Below are positions 2,477 through 37,886 of a DNA stretch of 39,995 nt, piece after piece. This DNA is from an uncultured Candidatus Saccharibacteria bacterium (GTDB lineage Bacteria; Patescibacteriota; Andersenbacteria; CAZYLA01), in assembly GCA_964648435.1 (NCBI GenBank), contig CAZYLA010000001.1, positions 1 through 39,995 on the forward strand, written 5' to 3'. Position numbers and translations under genes: made by a program. Within the stretch, counting starts at the first letter, position 1, and each line of letters starts with the position of its first letter. The notes beneath the pieces are model-generated. The model worked only from the letters and a program-made list of their open reading frames with translations, was not told the origin of the DNA and made no database searches.

Positions 2477-4207
2477 CTATTTTTTCTCTTTAATTTCCTT
2501 CTTCGCCCGGCCAATGAAGTATTTTAAGGTTTTTGGGCCAAGGTCGCCTTTTTCTCTCGTGCGGAGGGCGACTTTTTTTTCTTTTTTCTCACGGTCGCCA
2601 ACAACAAGCATATAAGGGATTTTTTCTTTTTCCGCTTTTCTGATTTTGTAATTTACAGATTCTGCTTCTCCGTCGATTTCAACGCGGAGGCCGTTTTCTT
2701 TTAAATCCTCGGCAACTTTGCGGGCGTAGGTAAGATGTTTTTTATCGGAAACAGGAATTATTTTTGCTTGGACCGGCGAGAGCCAGAGAGGCAGAGCGCC
2801 TCCATAATGCTCCAAGAGGACTCCGATAAATCTTTCAAAGCTTCCTAAAATTGTTCGGTGAATCATAATTGGTGTGTGCTTTTTGCCGTCAGCGCCGATA
2901 TATTCAAGTCCAAAGCGCTCGGGAATATTAAAGTCAAGCTGAATCGTGGTGCATTGCCATTCCCGACCCAAACTGTCTTTTATTTTAATATCAATTGAAG
3001 GACCATAGAATTTTGCCTCGCCTCTGTCAAGCCGAAATTCCATTTTTTCTTTTTTAAGCGCTTTTGCAAGAACTTTTTCTGACTTTTTCCAAATTTTTTC
3101 GTCTCCCAAGTACTTATCTTTGTGGGCTTCATCGCGGACGCTTATTGTGACAACATAATCTTTAAACCCAAAAGTGCCAAGAACTTCTTTAGAAAGACGG
3201 ATAACCTCAATAATTTCATCCTCAACTTGATCTTCAGTGCAGTAAATATGAGCATCATCTTGAGTGAAAGCGCGAACCCGGAAAAGTCCGGTCAAGACGC
3301 CAGAAAGCTCATGCCGATGGACAAGCCCAAGCTCCGCAATCCTAAGGGGGAATTCGCGGTAAGAGTGAATCCTTTCTTTATAATAAAGCGCGCCGCCAGA
3401 ACAGTTCATTGGTTTAATTCCAAAATCCTCGTTGTCAATTTTAGTAATATACATATTGTCTTTGTAAAGTTTCCAGTGGCCAGATTGCTCCCAAAGATTT
3501 TTGTTAAGAAGAAGGGGGGTGGAGATTTCCCTGTAGCCCTCCCTTGTGTGAACTTCCCGCCAATACTTTTTGATTTCCTCAAGGATGGCGAGTCCTTTAG
3601 GGTGCCAAAAGGGAAAACCCGGGCCTTCTTCATGGAAAGAGAAGAGACCAAGCTCTTTGCCGATTTTGCGATGGTCGCGCTTTTTTGCCTCAGCCATCAT
3701 TACAAGGTGTTTTTGAAGCGCTTTTTGGCTTTCAAAAGCAGTTCCGTAAATCCGCTGGAGCATCGGATTTCTTTCATTGCCCCGCCAGTAAGCTCCTGCA
3801 AGGTGAGTGAGTTTAAATGCTTTGATTTCGCGCGTATTTTTAATATGCGGGCCCTTGCAGAGGTCAACAAAATCGCCTGTTTCATAAATCGTTGGTTTTT
3901 CTTCAAGTTCTTTTATAAGTTCAAGCTTGTAGGGCTGCTTAGAAAAAAGTTTTAAAGCAGTGCCTTTAGAAATTATTTTCTTTTTAAACACCAAATTTTT
4001 GGCGATTATTTTTGCCATTTTCTTCTCAAGTTCGACGAGGTCAGCCGGCGTCAGAGTTCGGGGCAAGTCAAAATCATAATAAAACCCGTTTTCAATTACG
4101 GGTCCAATTCCAAGCTTAGCATTCGGAAACATTTCCAAAACCGCCATTGCAAGGACGTGGGAAGCGGAGTGGCGGATTTTTTCAAGATTGTTGTTTTGTT
4201 TGGACAT
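2477..4207 (-). CDS. thrS: Threonine--tRNA ligase lacking the N-terminal TGS domain
   Basis: 576 aa. Starts directly in the editing-type domain (HSASHVLA, CKGPH), followed by a class II catalytic core and a C-terminal anticodon-binding domain (YMLVVGDRE). Confidence 0.93.
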   Translation of the reverse strand: MSKQNNNLEKIRHSASHVLAMAVLEMFPNAKLGIGPVIENGFYYDFDLPRTLTPADLVELEKKMAKIIAKNLVFKKKIISKGTALKLFSKQPYKLELIKELEEKPTIYETGDFVDLCKGPHIKNTREIKAFKLTHLAGAYWRGNERNPMLQRIYGTAFESQKALQKHLVMMAEAKKRDHRKIGKELGLFSFHEEGPGFPFWHPKGLAILEEIKKYWREVHTREGYREISTPLLLNKNLWEQSGHWKLYKDNMYITKIDNEDFGIKPMNCSGGALYYKERIHSYREFPLRIAELGLVHRHELSGVLTGLFRVRAFTQDDAHIYCTEDQVEDEIIEVIRLSKEVLGTFGFKDYVVTISVRDEAHKDKYLGDEKIWKKSEKVLAKALKKEKMEFRLDRGEAKFYGPSIDIKIKDSLGREWQCTTIQLDFNIPERFGLEYIGADGKKHTPIMIHRTILGSFERFIGVLLEHYGGALPLWLSPVQAKIIPVSDKKHLTYARKVAEDLKENGLRVEIDGEAESVNYKIRKAEKEKIPYMLVVGDREKKEKKVALRTREKGDLGPKTLKYFIGRAKKEIKEKK

Positions 4208-4312: not shown

Positions 4313-5458
4313 CTATTTTCCAACTTGTATTGTGATATTATTTTTAAACGAGGGCACTGTTTTTACCCAAAAAGGCCAGAATTCAACTCTGACATCTTTA
4401 ATGCCGCTCATTGTGCTAAAATAGTTTTTAACCTCTTCTTCATTTAGGCCAACGAGGCGCGACTTGTCAAAGGCCTTGGCGCTGATCTTGTAGGCAATCT
4501 CGCCTTCAGTGTGGACCCGAATTTCGGCTTTGCCATCAGCAAGATAAATATTTTTAATTTCTTTTGTTAAAGCTTCTTCTCGGGCTTTTATAAATTCGCG
4601 ATTTTCCGGGACATTTTGCGAAAGTTTAAGCTCGCCCAAGTCAAAGAGAGCTTTTGAATTAATAATAAAGGCAGAAAATTTGACCTTTGTTTCGATTTCA
4701 AATTCGCTTGCTTCGGTGCCCGGCTCGACACTTTTCTTTTCTTCTAAAATTTCTTTATGAATGGGCTCGCTTGCAATTTCTTCCCCTTCGGAAAGTCCTT
4801 CTAAAATTTCATTTTTAAATTTTTCCTCAAGTTCGTTTTGAAGTTCTGAAAAAGCATTTCTAATATCTTCTTCAGTCACAATTTGAACTTCCCGAAAACC
4901 GCCAGTCATTGGTGCGGTACTTTCAGCATAAACCAACTTTTGCAGAGAAGGGGAGAGCCGGTCAATTGCAAAACGGCTTGGGGGAATATTTCCCTGCTCA
5001 CCGGGCTCTTCAGCAGTGACTGTGACTTCAATCGAGCCCTTTGCCGGGATAACCGCTCTTTCGTCAGTTAGGAAATAAACCCCGCCTTCTGAAAGAAGAT
5101 GACTTTTTGCAACCAAAGACTGACTTTTTGCTTGATTATTGTAAAGAGTAACTTTGCCTTTGGCAAATTCCGGAATCTTTTTAGTGCTGACGCTCTCAAT
5201 TTTTTTCTTTCCTGTAATTTCTTTTGTTAAGATTTCGCCGGGAAGAATATTGTGTTCAAAATCAACACCGCCAGCATTTTTGTCAATAATAACTGTAAAA
5301 TCAACCATTTTTGTTTCTGTTTTGGGGATAAGGGTAATGCGGGCTTTTGAGAAAGTAAAATAAACAACAACGCCAATAACAGAAATTGCCAAAATTATAA
5401 AAATGGCAATCCCGCGGCGATAACTTCTTTTAGGAGAAACTGTGCCTAAGTGAATCAT
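4313..5458 (-). CDS. Hypothetical single-pass membrane protein
   Basis: Long ORF with one N-terminal TM helix (IAIFIILAISVIGVVVYFTF). No family recognised with certainty. Confidence 0.5.
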   Translation of the reverse strand: MIHLGTVSPKRSYRRGIAIFIILAISVIGVVVYFTFSKARITLIPKTETKMVDFTVIIDKNAGGVDFEHNILPGEILTKEITGKKKIESVSTKKIPEFAKGKVTLYNNQAKSQSLVAKSHLLSEGGVYFLTDERAVIPAKGSIEVTVTAEEPGEQGNIPPSRFAIDRLSPSLQKLVYAESTAPMTGGFREVQIVTEEDIRNAFSELQNELEEKFKNEILEGLSEGEEIASEPIHKEILEEKKSVEPGTEASEFEIETKVKFSAFIINSKALFDLGELKLSQNVPENREFIKAREEALTKEIKNIYLADGKAEIRVHTEGEIAYKISAKAFDKSRLVGLNEEEVKNYFSTMSGIKDVRVEFWPFWVKTVPSFKNNITIQVGK

Positions 5459-14109: not shown

Positions 14110-15009
14110 CTATTTTTGTTTTAAATGTAATATTCTTATTTTGCCGGACAAATCTTTTTTAAGTTCTGCTTTCATTTTTGGCAGGTTTTTCTTTGCCTCT
14201 AGAATTAACTCCAGAGATTGTTCAGGAGATGTCTCCAAGAAAATCTCACCGTTGGGTTTGAGGTATTTTGGTGCGGCCCTGAGGAGTTTTTTAATATAGA
14301 AAGATCCGTTTCTGCCGCCAAAAAGCGCTTTTCTGGGTTCAAACTTTAAATTTTTAAAATATTTCTGATAATCTTTATCGGAAATATAAGGAAGATTGGC
14401 GATTATTACATCGACTTTTTCTGATAGACAAGATAGAAGATTGCCTTTTAAAAATTTTATCCCGCACCTTTTTGCCGCTTTACGGCAAAAAGGTGCGGGG
14501 TTTATTCTTTTTGAGACGTGGTGGCGTCTGGCATTTGCGTGGGCGACTTTAAGAGCACTTTGAGAAATATCAGTTGCATAAATTTTGGCAGTTGGAAGCT
14601 TTTTGGCGATAGTGATGGCAATACAGCCGCACCCTGTGCCGATGTCTGCAATTTTAAGATTTTTCTTTTTAGCAATTTTAGATTTTAAAAAATATTCTAC
14701 AAGTTCTTCGGTTTCTGGTCTGGGAATTAAAACATTTTGATTAATTTTAAACCCAAGGCCGAAAAATTCTTTTTTTCCTAAAATATAAGCAAGGGGGAAT
14801 CTGGTAAGCCGTTTTTTAACAAGATGCTTAAATTTATTTTCAGTATTTTTGGAAATCTTTTTTTCTAAATTCTGAAAAAGATACTCTTTTGGCTTTTTAA
14901 TGGTATGGCACAAAAGAAGCTCGCTTTCTATTCGAGCTTCTTTGCTTATTTTTTGAAGTTTTTGTTCTCCTTTTTGGAGGAGACATTTGATATTTTTAGG
15001 CGATTTCAT
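14110..15009 (-). CDS. prmC: Release-factor glutamine N5-methyltransferase (HemK/PrmC)
   Basis: IPRPETE, DIGTGCGCIAI, IIANLPYI (NPPY variant). The true start is most likely MKSPKNIK (ATG at 15009); the longer track ORF runs into repeat copy C. Confidence 0.88.
   Translation of the reverse strand: MKSPKNIKCLLQKGEQKLQKISKEARIESELLLCHTIKKPKEYLFQNLEKKISKNTENKFKHLVKKRLTRFPLAYILGKKEFFGLGFKINQNVLIPRPETEELVEYFLKSKIAKKKNLKIADIGTGCGCIAITIAKKLPTAKIYATDISQSALKVAHANARRHHVSKRINPAPFCRKAAKRCGIKFLKGNLLSCLSEKVDVIIANLPYISDKDYQKYFKNLKFEPRKALFGGRNGSFYIKKLLRAAPKYLKPNGEIFLETSPEQSLELILEAKKNLPKMKAELKKDLSGKIRILHLKQK
14461..14499. repeat. 39-nt palindromic element inserted in-frame in prmC
   Basis: CCCGCACCTTTTTGCCG-CTTTA-CGGCAAAAAGGTGCGGG (17-bp arms). 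It equals exactly 13 codons (PAPFCRKAAKRCG) starting on a codon boundary. Confidence 0.8.
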
Positions 15010-17612: not shown

Positions 17613-17654
17613 AGCGCTGAAAAATCACGCGGCGCCGCGTGATTTTTCAGCGCT
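17613..17654. repeat. 42-nt perfect palindrome between the orphan-gene promoter and the rpsB promoter
   Basis: AGCGCTGAAAAATCACGCGGC / GCCGCGTGATTTTTCAGCGCT. Confidence 0.9.
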
Positions 17655-21230: not shown

Positions 21231-21277
21231 CTGCCCACCAAAAAATCCGCCTTTTTGGCGGATTTTTTGGTGGGCAG
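21231..21277. terminator. 21-bp perfect hairpin built from an inverted copy of the tRNA-Tyr 3' end
   Basis: CTGCCCACCAAAAAATCCGCC-TTTTT-GGCGGATTTTTTGGTGGGCAG, 19 nt after the stop of the TPR gene. Confidence 0.65.
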
Positions 21278-21287
21278 GGAGGGATTC
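21263..21287 (-). repeat. 25-nt direct duplicate of the tRNA-Tyr 3' end plus trailer
   Basis: TTTTTTGGTGGGCAGGGAGGGATTC is identical to 21410-21434. Confidence 0.9.
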
Positions 21288-21414
21288 CTCCTCGCTCCAA
21301 CTCGGAGCCGGGGCGCTACACCCAAAAGCTCCTTTGGGTCGCTTTTTTCTCGCGCCCTTCGAATCCCTCTATCTTTCAATAACCAAAAAAAGATTACTTA
21401 AAAGCAATCTTTTT

Positions 21415-21500
21415 TGGTGGGCAGGGAGGGATTCGAACCCCCGAAGGCGTAAGCCACGTGGTTTACAGCCACGCCCGTTTGACCACTTCGGTACCTACCC
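21415..21500 (-). tRNA. tRNA-Tyr (GUA), class II long variable arm, CCA encoded
   Basis: Minus strand: GGGTAGG TA CCGAAGTGGTCAAACGG G CGTGG CTGTAAA CCACG TGGCTTACGCCTTC GGGGG TTCGAAT CCCTC CCTGCCC A CCA. Confidence 0.9.
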
Positions 21501-21560
21501 TTTAGGTAATTTACAGAATACCAGATTTTTTAGCTTTTTTCAAGCTCCGCATCTTTTTCA

Positions 21561-21584
21561 GTCGGGGGCGGGATTTGAACCCGC
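21561..21584 (-). pseudogene. Orphan tRNA 3' fragment (T arm plus acceptor 3' strand)
   Basis: Minus strand: GCGGG TTCAAAT CCCGC CCCCGAC. No matching 5' half, D arm or anticodon arm lies upstream. Confidence 0.6.
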
Positions 21585-21611
21585 GTCCTTAAGTTGCTGG
21601 TCAAATTTGTA

Positions 21612-21687
21612 TGGAGCCCAAGAGCGGATTCGAACCGCTGACCTACTCCTTACCATGGAGTTGCTCTACCGACTGAGCTACTTGGGC
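21612..21687 (-). tRNA. tRNA-Thr (GGU), CCA encoded
   Basis: Minus strand: GCCCAAG TA GCTC AGTCGGTA GAGC A ACTCC ATGGTAA GGAGT AGGTC AGCGG TTCGAAT CCGCT CTTGGGC T CCA. Confidence 0.92.
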
Positions 21688-21761
21688 GCGAGAGGGTTTG
21701 ACTGTTTACAGTCTATCATTATTTTAGGTGACTTTTCAAGTTGTTTTTCTTGAAAAATAAC

Positions 21762-21790
21762 TTGAAAAATGCGTTCAGAGATGTTAGAAT
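21762..21790 (+). promoter_or_regulatory. Promoter for the plus-strand composite tRNA transcript
   Basis: TTGAAA, 17-nt spacer, TAGAAT; ends 12 nt before 21803. Confidence 0.55.
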
Positions 21791-21802
21791 AAATGTCATA
21801 AG

Positions 21803-21826
21803 GCCGGCGTAGCTCAATGGTAGAGT
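21803..21826 (+). pseudogene. tRNA 5' third (acceptor 5' strand plus D arm) with no contiguous anticodon arm
   Basis: GCCGGCG TA GCTC AATGGTA GAGT. The D arm is near-identical to that of the nested tRNA-Thr. Confidence 0.65.
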
Positions 21827-21835
21827 CCCGACAGA

Positions 21836-21908
21836 GCCCGCCTAGCTCAATTGGTAGAGCAACGCTCTTGTAAAGCGTAGGTTGTCAGTTCGATCCTGAC
21901 GGCGGGCT
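21836..21908 (+). tRNA. tRNA-Thr (UGU), no encoded CCA, nested between tRNA fragments
   Basis: GCCCGCC TA GCTC AATTGGTA GAGC A ACGCT CTTGTAA AGCGT AGGTT GTCAG TTCGATC CTGAC GGCGGGC T. Confidence 0.9.
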
Positions 21909-21925
21909 CTGTCGGGATAAACAGT

Positions 21926-21955
21926 AGGTTGTGGGTTCGAATCCCTCCCCCGGCT
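21926..21955 (+). pseudogene. tRNA 3' fragment (variable loop, T arm, acceptor 3' strand)
   Basis: AGGTT GTGGG TTCGAAT CCCTC CCCCGGC T. One T-stem mismatch; 6 of 7 complementary to 21803-21809. Confidence 0.6.
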
Positions 21956-21975
21956 GAAAAAGGTGTGGGGTAAAT

Positions 21976-22041
21976 AGGTCGTCAGCTTGTCCCGCACCCT
22001 AGCGAAGCTAGTGGTGCGGGGTTTGATCCTGACCGCCGGCT
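21976..22041 (+). pseudogene. tRNA 3' fragment with a 36-nt segment inserted in the T loop
   Basis: AGGTC GTCAG [21986-22021, containing hairpin 21991-22020] TTTGATC CTGAC CGCCGGC T. The acceptor strand is 7 of 7 complementary to 21803-21809. Confidence 0.6.
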
Positions 22042-22062
22042 CCGCTATAAAAGAAAATTACA

Positions 22063-23781
22063 ATGTCTCGAGATTTTATTTTTAGTATGCTTTTGGGAAT
22101 ATTTGTGGGGCTCCTTTTGGGTGTGCTCGGATTTGCTCTTTTTCAAAATTTATACAAAAGCGAGATATCGGAGGGTTTAGAAGCAGAACTTGCAGAAGTG
22201 GCTCAGGAGGCAGAAAAAATTGCTTTTAAGGAAAAAACCCAAGAAGAACCTCAAGAAAATACTAATGAAGGATCTCCTGCGGTTTTATACGCTGAAGTTG
22301 AAGAGCGCCAAGGGAAAGAATATTGGCAAAGAATTTTCCTAAAAAAATCGCCCGAGGAAGAAGTTAGGGAAATTGATTTACCTGACAATGCTTTTCATTT
22401 TGAAATGCCAATTCTGTCGCATAATGAGATATTTTTTTATGCCGCCGATGGTAATACTGAGAGTCCGGAAAATGACCAGCTTTTTCTTTTTCGAATGGGG
22501 CTTGATGGCAGAGAGGCAGAAGAAGTTTTGCCGTATACGCCCGGCGTTTCGCCATCAGGTTTTTTGCCCTCACCTGACCGCAAAAAAATTGCTTACTTTC
22601 TAGACTCGCGAGTTAATGAAGGCAGTGAAATATGGGTTTACGACACTGAAAATGGAATAAATTTTGTAGCAGTTGAACTCCTTGACAAGCAAGTTAATAA
22701 AAATATTGTCTCCTGGAGCGCAGATTCGAGCCGCCTTTACTTTTTAAAGAAAATGAAACCCTATTTGTACATTCTTCACTGGGTTGATATTAAGGCAGCT
22801 CCCAAAATTCAAACTCAAGAATTTCAAAATATTTATTGGGAGAGCATAAATTGGCAAAATCTTCTTAAAGGTGAACTCTCATTTTTTACTCTTTCGCCCG
22901 ATAAAAAATATATTGCCTATCTTCCGCCTCTTAAAAATCAAATTAATTTCATTAGAACAAGTGATGGCGTTATTACCAGCTTTACGCCCACATCTTCTAT
23001 TAAGGAGATTCTTTGGCATCCGAATTCAGCTGAGCTAATTTATACTCAAAAAGAAAATCCTGGAATTTTTAAAATGAATTTAGCTCTTCGACGCGAAGAG
23101 AAGTTTATTGATCCTGGACCACTCACTGGCACTCGGGCGCAGGGCAGCGTTTCCGTACCTCTTACCCACACTCAGGTGCAGGACAGCGCTAAAGATGTTG
23201 AAATAAAAAATATTCAAATCACGCCAGACGGCAGTTTTTTAGGGTATATTAAAGAGAAAGAAGATTTTTCCGAAATTATCTTGAATGATCTAGAAAGTGG
23301 CGAGAGATATACAATTGCCCGCGAAGAAGAAGCTTCGGAAAAATTGCGTCTTCTTTCTCTTTCCTATTTGTCAAGGGAAAGACCTTTTCAAAAAGAGATT
23401 GTCTCTGAACTTCAAGTAAGGCGTGTTGAAGAAGGCACTTTGGAAGAGGATGAGATAAGACAAGTTATTGGTTATATCACTGCTAATATTAATGCGATTG
23501 CTCCAGAAAAAAGAGAGAGTGGTTGGGAAGTCAAAAGATTCTGGTTTATTGATTCTCGGAATCTTTATGTTGATTTTGAGAGTGGGTCTGATTTAAGGCG
23601 CGTTTTTCTTTCTTTTGACATCTTGACAGAAGAAGAAGCAGGATATAGAATAAAGGCCTATTTTGAAGCTGTGGGTGATAAGTGGGTTTTAAGAAAGGGT
23701 CAGGTGCTTCAAGAAGAGCAAAGTTTGATACTCTATACTTTTAATAAAAACACAAATAGTTGGGAACGAAACAATAATTAA
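22063..23781 (+). CDS. Membrane-anchored hypothetical protein, probably beta-propeller (TolB/PD40-like)
   Basis: N-terminal TM helix. Recurrent motifs of the type SPD-K-IAY / -PDG-FLGY, as in PD40/WD40-like propellers. Confidence 0.5.
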   Translation: MSRDFIFSMLLGIFVGLLLGVLGFALFQNLYKSEISEGLEAELAEVAQEAEKIAFKEKTQEEPQENTNEGSPAVLYAEVEERQGKEYWQRIFLKKSPEEEVREIDLPDNAFHFEMPILSHNEIFFYAADGNTESPENDQLFLFRMGLDGREAEEVLPYTPGVSPSGFLPSPDRKKIAYFLDSRVNEGSEIWVYDTENGINFVAVELLDKQVNKNIVSWSADSSRLYFLKKMKPYLYILHWVDIKAAPKIQTQEFQNIYWESINWQNLLKGELSFFTLSPDKKYIAYLPPLKNQINFIRTSDGVITSFTPTSSIKEILWHPNSAELIYTQKENPGIFKMNLALRREEKFIDPGPLTGTRAQGSVSVPLTHTQVQDSAKDVEIKNIQITPDGSFLGYIKEKEDFSEIILNDLESGERYTIAREEEASEKLRLLSLSYLSRERPFQKEIVSELQVRRVEEGTLEEDEIRQVIGYITANINAIAPEKRESGWEVKRFWFIDSRNLYVDFESGSDLRRVFLSFDILTEEEAGYRIKAYFEAVGDKWVLRKGQVLQEEQSLILYTFNKNTNSWERNNN

Positions 23782-23975: not shown

Positions 23976-24022
23976 CGCGCCCAGTTAGAAATTTTTCAAT
24001 GAAAAATTTCTAACTGGGCGCG
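23976..24022 (+). other. 22-bp perfect leader hairpin overlapping tRNA-Trp positions 1-7
   Basis: CGCGCCCAGTTAGAAATTTTTC-AAT-GAAAAATTTCTAACTGGGCGCG. The right arm ends with GGGCGCG, which is the tRNA-Trp 5' acceptor strand. Confidence 0.85.
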
Positions 24023-24089
24023 TAGTTAAATGGTATAATAACGGTCTCCAAAACCGTTGTTGGGGGTTCGATTCCCTCCGCGCCTGCCA
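24016..24089 (+). tRNA. tRNA-Trp (CCA), CCA end encoded
   Basis: GGGCGCG TA GTTA AATGGTAT AATA ACGGT CTCCAAA ACCGT TGTTG GGGGT TCGATT CCCTC CGCGCCT G CCA (G1-U72 wobble). Confidence 0.88.
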
Positions 24090-24117
24090 ATGAATTATAA
24101 TACCCTGGATTTGCCTG

Positions 24118-24154
24118 CCCCGCACTTTTGAGCGGTAGTGAAAATAGTGCGGGG
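24118..24154. repeat. GC-ended small palindrome of the CCCGCAC...GTGCGGG family
   Basis: CCCCGCAC-N21-GTGCGGGG, 29 nt after tRNA-Trp. Confidence 0.7.
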
Positions 24155-24169
24155 AATCCTAGCGCCCCT

Positions 24170-24217
24170 GCCAAGAAGAGCCCAGTTTTTGCACGCAAAA
24201 ACTGGGCTCTTCTTGGC
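24170..24217. terminator. 21-bp perfect hairpin downstream of tRNA-Trp
   Basis: GCCAAGAAGAGCCCAGTTTTT-GCACGC-AAAAACTGGGCTCTTCTTGGC. It is preceded by GCGCCCCTGCCA, which resembles the tRNA-Trp 3' end GCGCCTGCCA. Confidence 0.6.
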
Positions 24218-32136: not shown

Positions 32137-32210
32137 AAACAAAAAAAACGCTGCTTCAAAAAATTTTTTGCAGCTGCAAAAAATTTTTTGAAGCAGCGTT
32201 TTTTTTGTTT
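32137..32210. terminator. 74-nt perfect palindrome between convergent genes
   Basis: The left half 32137-32173 is the exact reverse complement of 32174-32210 (AAACAAAAAAAACGCTGCTTCAAAAAATTTTTTGCAG | CTGCAAAAAATTTTTTGAAGCAGCGTTTTTTTTGTTT). Confidence 0.8.
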
Positions 32211-37838: not shown

Positions 37839-37886
37839 GAGCCGCGAAAAAACGACGTCGCTAGCGACGTCGTTTTTTCGCGGCTC
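37839..37886. terminator. 23-bp perfect hairpin after the large minus-strand gene
   Basis: GAGCCGCGAAAAAACGACGTCGC-TA-GCGACGTCGTTTTTTCGCGGCTC. Confidence 0.7.

Follow-up and report, generated by a model that had tools for sequence, protein, structure and literature searches.

The window analyzed here, 39,995 nucleotides of contig CAZYLA010000001.1 from an uncultured Candidatus Saccharibacteria bacterium, harbors a tRNA-Thr(UGU) locus that is best read as doubly nested, i.e., as a gene inside a gene inside a gene, with two layers of relics around one intact tRNA. With a probability of roughly 0.6, we attribute this structure to serial replacement, in which palindromic cassettes carrying a new tRNA-Thr(UGU) were inserted between positions 35 and 36 of the resident gene, whose outer halves remained as relics. 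The further idea that the cassette is a transferable, gene-less palindromic element of about 100 nt with tRNA-Thr(UGU) as its sole cargo, a selfish or semi-selfish unit of an undescribed kind, is put forward tentatively. The locus comprises the following features (L numbers denote fetched loci of other genomes):

21762-21790, plus strand: putative sigma-70-like promoter, TTGAAA-17-(TG)TAGAAT, 10/12 matches, with TG extension
21803-21826, plus strand: outer 5′ relic (O5), tRNA positions 1-25, GCCGGCG TA GCTC AATGGTA GAGT; nhmmer 5′-half profile, E = 1e-4
21827-21835, plus strand: leader of the innermost cassette, CCCGACAGA; together with T21826 a perfect complement of the trailer
21836-21908, plus strand: inner tRNA-Thr(UGU), intact, without encoded CCA; ARAGORN and Rfam RF00005
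21909-21917, plus strand: trailer of the innermost cassette, CTGTCGGGA, ending in CGGGA and followed by TAA
21918-21955, plus strand: relic A, positions 36-73 of a second tRNA-Thr(UGU), TAA ACAGT AGGTT GTGGG TTCGAAT CCCTC CCCCGGC T; nhmmer 3′-half profile
21956-21970, plus strand: trailer relic of an older cassette, GAAAAAGGTGTGGGG; compared with the trailers of L003, L045 and L080
21971-22044, plus strand: relic B, 3′ part of a canonical tRNA-Thr(UGU), TAAAT AGGTC GTCAG (36-nt insert) TTTGATC CTGAC CGCCGGC T CCG; by homology
21986-22021, plus strand: 36-nt hairpin, CCCGCACC ... GGTGCGGG, an insertion in relic B that follows the 5′ T-stem strand and precedes the T loop

The inner gene was called by ARAGORN and scored 68.1 bits with RF00005 (threshold 29), which places it among the canonical bacterial elongator tRNAs. 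Its sequence contains U8, A14, G18G19, U33 and G53T54T55C56 as well as G1-C72, C2-G71, G35 and U36, the last four of which correspond to the threonine identity elements of E. coli tRNA-Thr. The 3′ end reads GGCGGGCT followed by CTG, i.e., CCA is absent, unlike in the neighboring genes for tRNA-Tyr, tRNA-Thr(GGU) and tRNA-Trp, which encode it. Thus, an intact tRNA-Thr(UGU) without CCA, preceded by tRNA positions 1-25 at 21803-21826, was confirmed as described in a first-pass annotation of this DNA. The sequence 21836-21908 is presumed to be the functional gene of the locus, and probably only this innermost gene works. The promoter, which had also been proposed before, ends 12 nt upstream of O5, and no terminator-like site was found between it and 22063; the ancestral promoter now probably drives the whole composite.

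The sequences around the inner gene can be read as the remains of two further genes. O5 matches the canonical 5′ half GCCGGCGTAGCTCAGTGGTAGAG at 22 of 23 positions and lacks the 5′ part of the anticodon arm; its acceptor strand is complementary to 22034-22040 at all seven positions and to 21948-21954 at six. Relic A, whose core is 21926-21955 and whose start was moved to 21918 by homology, matched the 3′-half profile over its full length (E = 9e-8), and the nested gene of L045 has an identical T arm. Relic B has the same T arm as the inner gene. Its anticodon stem is short by 3 nt in the window, L003, L045 and L080 alike, and its terminus is CCG in the window and CCA in the three other loci. 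The older trailer relic ends in GGGG ahead of TAA and has lost its leader partner; it matches the 3′ arm of a hairpin at 14485-14499 at 13 of 15 positions. At the right junctions (marked here and below by a slash) the window reads ...CTGTCGGGA/TAA ACAGT into relic A and ...GGTGTGGGG/TAAAT into relic B. Both 3′ parts had been noticed before, together with the 36-nt insert in B; they were then regarded as alternative ends, a reading we replace by that of relics of two outer genes. After removal of the insert the outer gene(s) of the window do not form a complete cloverleaf, since O5 ends at position 25, and ARAGORN called them only when the canonical anticodon-arm 5′ strand was supplied artificially. 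In intron mode, ARAGORN reported the inner genes alone on the nested loci.

A search of species-representative genomes with a pattern taken from the 3′ part B gave 75 loci. In 14 Patescibacteria genomes of that search the canonical tRNA-Thr(UGU), GCCGGCGTAGCTCAGTGGTAGAGCAACTGTTTTGTAAACAGTAGGTCGTCAG-loop-CTGACCGCCGGCT, is intact, and in most of these, as well as in further relatives found via neighboring genes, the tRNA-Thr(UGU) gene, whatever its type, lies downstream of rpsB-tsf, as in the window. Because O5 and relic B both match the canonical gene and share its location, they are what is left of the orthologous rpsB-tsf tRNA-Thr(UGU). The earlier suggestion of a decayed Thr paralogue invaded by duplication was therefore right in so far as the broken gene is decayed, but the gene is the orthologous ancestral one, there are two relic layers, and no simple duplication accounts for them.

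The same nesting was looked for in related genomes and found in L045/L079, L080 and L056, with compensatory changes in the leader/trailer helix between L045 and L080; the relatives did not present plain tandem genes devoid of helix conservation or covariation. L045 (Candidatus Giovannonibacteria, a GTDB genome) is identical to the 706-kb contig L079 of the Joint Genome Institute. It consists of an outer 5′ half (GCCAGGATAGCTCAGTGGCTAGAGCAGTTGTTTTG), a leader (CCCGCCCCGTTAGAAAT), a complete tRNA-Thr(UGU), a trailer (CATCGACATTTCTAACGGGG) and TAAAC plus relic B with CCA, and its left junction reads ...GTTGT TTTG/CCCGCCCCGTTAGAAAT. The related groundwater contig L080 is laid out like L045, with the outer 5′ half cut down to GCAACTGTTTTG and the helix formed by CCCCGTCACAATTT / AAATTGTGACGGGG. 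In L056 (Candidatus Ryanbacteria) both outer tRNA-Thr(UGU) halves are intact (acceptor stem 7/7, anticodon stem 5/5, CCA) and are separated at TTTG/TAA by a leader, a canonical tRNA-Thr(UGU) and a trailer with a perfect helix of 13 bp; joined in silico, the outer gene was called as tRNA-Thr(UGU) by ARAGORN. Upstream of this outer gene, L056 contains an extra 5′ relic ending in TTTG.

Two further loci appear to keep only the trailer and the 3′ relic. L076 (Yanofskybacteria) contains a canonical gene, a trailer ending in GGGCGGGA and a TAA-led 3′ relic of a different tRNA-Thr(UGU), with no leader. L003 (SRR22387953) was reached via the 572-aa protein encoded next to the cluster (55% identity). 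Here, the counterpart of relic A is an apparently complete tRNA-Thr(UGU), inside whose D arm the contig begins; after it come a spacer of 26 nt, with GTGCGGGA at its end, and TAAAT AGGTCGTCAGTTCGAATCTGACCGCCGGCTCCA, the equivalent of relic B, which here lacks the 36-nt insert and ends with CCA. No leader that would pair with AATAGTGCGGGA was found within this contig, which is cut at its 5′ end. A contig search anchored on the 572-aa protein gave no relatives, and homologues of this protein and of the tetratricopeptide repeat (TPR) neighbor were few and resided mostly on contigs ending at tRNAs, so that L003 alone was informative.

The junctions of these loci agree with each other. On the left, TTTG/ was found wherever the junction is preserved (L045, L080, L056, and also the extra relic of L056), and on the right, (C/T)GG(G)(A/G)/TAA was found at levels 1 and 2 of the window and in L003, L045, L080, L056 and L076. 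Since the left half ends with TTTG and the right half begins with TAA, the interruption lies between anticodon-loop positions 35 and 36. A tRNA-in-anticodon-position arrangement, originally mentioned as one possibility, is thus borne out by the split outer genes of L045/L079, L080 and L056 and by the CGGGA/TAA in front of part A of the window. The inserts have a size of 82-138 nt and consist mostly of tRNA. In the window, L045, L080 and L003 the canonical type is the outer gene, in L056 and L076 the inner one; because either type can be inside, the inner gene is not a decayed copy of the outer gene. Inner and outer genes differ in acceptor, anticodon and T stems, and the first and last of these differences do not agree with a simple local duplication.

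To follow the locus among relatives, these were ranked by the identity of the small protein encoded next to it in L045:

L081, 89% to L045: plain GCCGCCC-type tRNA-Thr(UGU), no relics
L098, 66%: plain GCCGCCC type
L097, 60%: plain GCCGCCC type
L082, 58%: GCCACCT type; contig ends inside the tRNA
L010, 52%: canonical, complete
L084, 52%: canonical; contig ends inside the tRNA
L080, 50%: nested, as L045
L083, 49%: GCCGGAG type; contig ends inside the tRNA

The RpsB protein of the window is only 35-44% identical to that of any ranked relative. Nesting is patchy: it does not follow the identity of the neighboring gene, and the closest relatives are plain. Acceptor starts among L081, L082, L083, L084, L097, L098 and L010 were GCCGGCG, GCCGGAG, GCCACCT, GCCGCCC, GCCGACG and GCCAGCA; the alleles at the locus keep G1-C72, C2-G71 and C3-G70 and vary at positions 4-7 and in other stems including the T stems. 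The existence of several alleles, their patchy spread and the finding of either type as outer or inner gene argue for repeated allelic replacement instead of one ancient accident, and this replacement probably had horizontal input. A separate observation concerns L081, L097 and L098, where the stop codon of the upstream gene falls inside the tRNA.

According to the serial replacement explanation, a cassette made up of leader, complete tRNA-Thr(UGU) and trailer (the reverse complement of the leader), with ends of approximately (T)CCCG...CGGG(A/G), would enter the resident anticodon loop between positions 35 and 36 (TTTG/TAA). As its anticodon is split, the disrupted outer gene could no longer decode and its halves would persist as relics, and since the inner gene presents the same target loop it could be hit again, resulting in a Russian doll. 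The element would be harmless because it brings a replacement gene, and its repeated entry across the Patescibacteria would turn over the stems of the tRNA rapidly. In the window, the canonical gene (O5 and B) would first have taken up an A-type cassette, whose gene would then have taken up the present inner gene. Later, one 5′ half, the older leader and the anticodon-arm 5′ strand appear to have been lost. Recombination between the 5′ halves, which are direct repeats, is a plausible cause and would yield both the L003/L076 form and the window form. Finally, relic B would have gained the 36-nt hairpin and a change from CCA to CCG. The composite would be transcribed from the old promoter, and RNase P and RNase Z would free the inner tRNA, the end of which would be completed by the CCA-adding enzyme; this last step is suggested by the lack of CCA in the inner gene together with standard bacterial tRNA maturation. 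As for the route, homologous recombination via the conserved tRNA halves after DNA uptake may have copied the same junction each time, with no dedicated enzyme; alternatively, a site-specific enzyme may have been supplied in trans. Spread via near-universal tRNA halves could explain why relic B stayed canonical. We infer the direction and order of these events, and the movement of cassettes between genomes, from sequence comparison.

Several points weigh against this explanation. Relic B is better conserved than the functional gene: L045 and L080 are identical at 37 of 38 positions in relic B, at 63 of 73 in the inner gene and by 60-74% in the flanking genes, which hints at a function or at gene conversion outside serial replacement. 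Part of this conservation is ascertainment bias, as L045 and L080 were found with patterns requiring relic B; neither the acceptor strand nor CCA belonged to the pattern that found L080, and relic B played no part in the finding of L003. The same bias applies to the sample as a whole, a handful of nested loci, several of which were found via a pattern requiring an intact relic B. In the window itself the left junction is not preserved; as O5 stops at position 25, the 35/36 point of the innermost cassette was deduced from the right junction and the relatives. Moreover, the trailer sequence CTGT (21909-21912) could be the old anticodon-stem 5′ strand instead. An insertion agent was not found: the junctions exhibit neither a target-site duplication nor a direct repeat, and Pfam disclosed no integrase or transposase domain in the 20 long open reading frames (ORFs) of the window (ORFs below 130 aa were not scanned). 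Four scans of viral contigs, for which the relic-B junction, the canonical 3′ part, the inner-gene core and the CGGGR/TAAAC junction served as queries, gave only ordinary phage tRNA-Thr genes or chance matches to coding sequences and lent no support to a phage origin.

The helix around the inner gene was studied in detail. A repeat search revealed a perfect inverted repeat of 17 nt (21826-21842 / 21901-21917, 100% complementary), composed of ten leader/trailer pairs and the 7-bp acceptor stem; the helix of 16 bp reported in the first-pass annotation is thus real, and one pair longer. For two random stretches of the window (35/40 nt), the chance of a perfect complement of at least 10 nt was 0.003, and of at least 13 nt about 5e-5, and among 170 tRNAs in all fetched loci the flank complement did not exceed 8 in any of the approximately 160 ordinary (non-nested) ones. 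The four complete nested loci (window, L045, L080, L056) possess helices of 10, 13, 14 and 13 bp, all of them perfect, whose sequences are unrelated between lineages except for the CCCG/CGGG ends. In the minimum free energy fold of 21795-22050 the long helix forms and 21803-21809 pairs with 22034-22040 (z = -5.9), and the predicted fold of L056 is a cloverleaf within a cloverleaf (z = -6.1).

These data might also reflect a selected pre-tRNA architecture, in which the helix, and possibly relic B with its CCA, would be kept for the RNA, be it as an RNase III-type or other processing stem, comparable to those around 16S/23S rRNA, for access of RNase P/Z or for transcript stability. Nesting would then belong to the normal build of the gene and would not be debris. 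We consider this unlikely, although several observations favor it. Each of the four complete nested loci has the helix, invariably within 0-4 nt of the tRNA 5′ end; three compensatory double changes, and not a single one-sided one, distinguish L045 from L080; relic B is conserved more strongly than the inner gene and has kept CCA in L003, L045 and L080; and the z-scores given above are strongly negative. On the other hand, 50 of 50 pairs over the four loci are Watson-Crick, with no G.U, as one would sooner expect from a DNA palindrome or from template-switch repair (PMC8794818), and the spacing to the tRNA 3′ end varies between 0 and 8 nt. Most Patescibacteria, the closest relatives included, have plain genes without the helix, and no leader was found in the L003 contig (cut at its 5′ end) or in L076. 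In the window, relic B is broken by the 36-nt hairpin and terminates with CCG rather than CCA. Finally, shuffling of the leader did not alter the predicted probability of the nested cloverleaf. Of the deliberate pre-tRNA design once proposed for this locus, the recurrence of the helix and its compensatory changes hold, whereas the exclusive Watson-Crick pairing, the variable spacing and the folding test speak against it.

This folding test, made at equilibrium, concerned a possible clamp, by which the helix would keep the inner cloverleaf from pairing wrongly with the relic halves that resemble it. With native and shuffled leaders, the inner cloverleaf probability was 0.76 vs 0.76 for the window, 0.20 vs 0.20 for L080 and 0.59 vs 0.63 for L056 (L045 was left out, its values being an artefact of an enforced U.U pair). 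Because shuffling does not lower the probability, the clamp was rejected and a folding role for the helix is unsupported. The idea that in L045 and L080 the 3′ acceptor strand of relic B has a pairing partner was likewise discarded, as the only predicted contact, 3 bp of GCC/GGC, is unconvincing.

At the DNA level, template switching during replication is able to create and repair such stems and can cause several compensatory changes at once (PMC8794818). Since near-loopless palindromes are abundant in the window and template switching is known, RNA-level selection and DNA-level maintenance of the helix are both possible. A purely local history would combine tandem or partial tRNA-Thr duplications and decay with a helix made and kept perfect by template switching (quasi-palindrome correction). 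Many perfect palindromes whose arms lie 0-5 nt apart are found in the window, at 1525-1570, 17613-17654, 21231-21277, 23976-24022, 24170-24217, 32137-32210 and 37839-37886, one of which takes in the first 7 nt of tRNA-Trp; relics also occur around tRNA-Tyr, tRNA-Thr(GGU) and tRNA-Trp, and the T arm shared by the inner gene and relic B would suit a local origin, as would the compensatory changes. Yet we judge such a history rather improbable. Duplication does not explain the clean 35/36 split with both outer halves kept in L045 and L056, and the same junction recurs in lineages whose RpsB proteins are only 35-44% identical. Nor does it account for the divergence of inner and outer genes in all of the acceptor, anticodon and T stems, whichever type is inside, or for a distribution of the nested form that is at odds with the neighboring gene.

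Integrative elements, as Williams is reported to have described in 2002, enter tRNA genes and bring along a copy of the 3′ segment that they displace, by which the gene is restored. The nested loci resemble their targets in that insertion is often at the anticodon loop, the tRNA is not lost, and relics and, after repeated hits, arrays arise; they differ in that a whole gene is carried on about 100 nt of gene-less DNA, with inverted flanks, no duplicated core and orphan 5′ halves. One could think of scars left by islands or prophages whose integration into tRNA-Thr had doubled its 3′ part as attL/attR and which were subsequently deleted. Relics A and B are indeed both 3′ parts, and other phyla commonly contain orphan tRNA-Thr(CGU) 3′ parts that begin with the entire anticodon loop (ttcgtaatcagcAGGTC...; L024, L037, L041, L047, L053, L071), for which reason tRNA-Thr is regarded as a frequent attachment (att) site. 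This reading is largely refuted and very unlikely: only 9-26 nt separate the gene from the next relic in five lineages, the relics begin at TAA without the duplicated overlap expected of tyrosine recombinases, 5′ halves ending at TTTG exist (L045, L056, L080), the flanks are inverted instead of direct repeats, the relics differ from the adjacent gene in T stem and acceptor, and no integrase domain was detected in the scanned ORFs. An assembly chimera or a collapsed repeat in the metagenome contig, to which the ends of L003, L082, L083, L086 and L087 inside or next to tRNA sequence might point, is highly improbable, since the same architecture exists in four other genomes of different projects (including Hainich groundwater and RIFCS), L079 with 706 kb is identical to the separately assembled L045, and the 16.7-kb ENA contig L001, which may not be an independent assembly, is 100% identical over 21350-22100.

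The nested loci were also compared with other known systems. Like the group I introns of cyanobacterial tRNA-Leu(UAA) and tRNA-fMet, they represent patchily distributed inserts in the anticodon loop of a bacterial tRNA. They differ by the absence of a group I core, a length of 82-138 nt that is mostly tRNA, and a 5′ junction after G35 instead of U (TTTG/C in L045, L080 and L056). Moreover, the host tRNA is decayed and not spliced back, its function being replaced by the cargo; simple excision would restore the loop, yet the outer stems are decayed. Rfam gave no group I match up to E = 10 in 21350-22150 and none up to E = 1 in 1500-2400 of L056, tRNA being the sole family. Independently of the nested loci, tRNA-Thr(GGU) genes with a group-I-like insert of about 200 nt after T36 (ATGGT/...G/AA) were encountered in L006 (5553-5795), L040 (5332-5578), L034 (5116-5401) and L074 (1894-2153, minus strand). 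Their hosts are Saccharibacteria, Yanofskybacteria and Paceibacterota, and ARAGORN misses these genes.

In archaea, bulge-helix-bulge (BHB) introns and split tRNA genes are found, e.g., in Nanoarchaeum equitans and Caldivirga. There, too, halves are joined by a GC-rich leader/trailer helix beside the anticodon loop, and two-piece molecules are conceivable here as well. The loci studied differ, however, by an internal loop of 4 x 3 nt (TTTG / TAA) in place of two 3-nt bulges and a 4-bp helix, by the position 35/36 instead of 37/38, by halves which lie in cis and are decayed, and by an intervening sequence that is itself a tRNA. To our knowledge, bacteria have no tRNA splicing endonuclease, and no EndA or ligase domain was found in the 20 scanned ORFs of the 40-kb window. 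Leaders and trailers of rRNA operons form processing stems that are RNase III sites. They share with our loci a long perfect helix made from the flanks of a stable RNA within one transcript, but here the RNA is a single tRNA, and the helix runs into the acceptor stem and is absent from most orthologues.

Repetitive extragenic palindromic (REP) and miniature inverted-repeat transposable element (MITE)-like sequences are small palindromic repeats. DDE-type insertion sequences and MITEs have inverted termini, which are present here, but there is no target-site duplication at TTTG/...../TAA in L045, L080 and L056. Template-switch hairpins (PMC8794818), REP and MITE-like elements have in common with the cassettes perfect Watson-Crick arms and several compensatory changes at once; none is known to bear a tRNA gene within its loop or to occupy one fixed nucleotide of a tRNA anticodon loop. 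A permuted tRNA does not match the order of 5′ relic, inner gene and 3′ relics. Altogether, the locus appears to be neither a group I intron nor a BHB intron, an integrase att scar or an assembly artefact. Searches of the literature on nested tRNA genes and on tRNA introns in the Candidate Phyla Radiation (CPR)/Patescibacteria yielded no account of one bacterial tRNA gene sitting inside the anticodon loop of another. The comparisons with known kinds of interrupted or targeted tRNA genes gave no match, and the nested anatomy seems to be new.

Group I introns are known to interrupt tRNA genes in bacteria, and integrating elements are known to use such genes for attachment. An interruption that lies at one constant position of the anticodon loop, consists of another full copy of the same tRNA and recurs in several deep lineages was not found in the literature. 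Were the cassette mobile, it would be among the smallest cargo-bearing mobile units known and would provide a new route of tRNA gene replacement; this would also explain why the acceptor, anticodon and T stems of tRNA-Thr(UGU) diverge so strongly between close Patescibacteria while the identity elements are fixed. Should the helix and relic B be selected at the RNA level, they would constitute a new bacterial pre-tRNA processing design. Because tRNA finders report the inner gene only, nested loci are invisible in current annotations, and tRNA relics of this type break short-read assemblies.

The tRNA cluster of the window is neighbored by genes for the TPR protein, the 572-aa beta-propeller-like protein, rpmG and SNase. 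Besides the nested locus, it contains the following genes and a further relic:

21415-21500, minus strand: tRNA-Tyr, encodes CCA
21547-21591, minus strand: third orphan relic, TAA GGAC GCGGG TTCAAAT CCCGC CCCCGAC T followed by GAAAAAGATGCGG; partial tRNA-like 3′ match
21612-21687, minus strand: tRNA-Thr(GGU), encodes CCA
24016-24089, plus strand: tRNA-Trp, encodes CCA

The third orphan relic begins 22 nt after the CCA of tRNA-Thr(GGU) and is paralogous, in inverted orientation, to relic A plus the old trailer (43 nt, 81%), which points to a past inversion or inverted duplication within the cluster. Compared with the order in other Patescibacteria, tRNA-Tyr and tRNA-Thr(GGU) are inverted. Positions 21263-21287 are an exact 25-nt copy of 21410-21434, i.e., of the tRNA-Tyr 3′ end plus an A-run, and lie inside a perfect 21+21 palindrome (region 21231-21287) just after the TPR gene; a likely truncated tRNA-Tyr pseudogene resides within 21263-21372 (minus strand), upstream of the duplicate on that strand. 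L086 has the same 41 nt of this region, where its contig ends. A perfect 23+23 palindrome (23976-24022) precedes tRNA-Trp, the first 7 nt of which belong to its right arm, and at 24108-24169 a tRNA-Trp 3′ relic with CCA (GGATT ... AATCC TAGCGCCCCTGCCA) was found, bearing a hairpin CCCCGCAC...GTGCGGGG in place of the T loop. The tRNA-Trp of L003 has neither a flanking palindrome nor a 3′ relic. A resemblance of the L045 leader CCCGTTAGAAAT to the palindrome CCAGTTAGAAAT upstream of tRNA-Trp is probably coincidental.

Three hairpins, at 14462-14498, 21992-22019 and 24120-24152, share the stem base CCGCAC/GTGCGG and have different tips (0.02 expected in 40 kb); two are located in T loops of tRNA relics and one is terminator-like. 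No exact or near-exact copy of the 36-nt hairpin was found elsewhere in the window or in the fetched loci, the stem base alone being shared. In L031 (Saccharibacteria; 4536-4720, minus strand), the 3′ relic after a canonical tRNA-Thr(UGU) contains a 20-nt hairpin (GTCAG/CTTG...) at exactly the position of the 36-nt hairpin in relic B of the window, and a 14-nt piece of the hairpin region recurs upstream of the tRNA gene. The perfect palindromes at 1525-1570, 17613-17654, 24170-24217, 32137-32210 and 37839-37886 are intergenic, with arms of 21-37 nt and gaps of 0-2 nt, and some carry A/T runs like bidirectional terminators; the palindromes may reflect frequent template-switch repair in this genome.

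Outside the Patescibacteria loci, tRNA-Thr(CGU) of L004, L044 and L078 (WOR-3-like) is flanked at 18-26 nt by an 8-bp complement, CCCGTGCC / GGCACGGG, which is kept in the three genomes and may be a processing stem. Orphan tRNA-Thr(CGU) 3′ halves starting at the complete anticodon loop (ttcgtaatcagc...), often in two copies per locus, were seen in L024, L037, L041, L047, L053, L071, L012, L029 and L075 (Nitrospirota, Acidobacteriota, Wallbacteria and others) and look like attachment-site duplicates. Within the window, a threonyl-tRNA synthetase gene is located at 2477-4207 (minus strand), 18 kb from the tRNA-Thr cluster; its product exhibits SAD, class II core and anticodon-binding domains, preceded by about 100 residues without a Pfam match.

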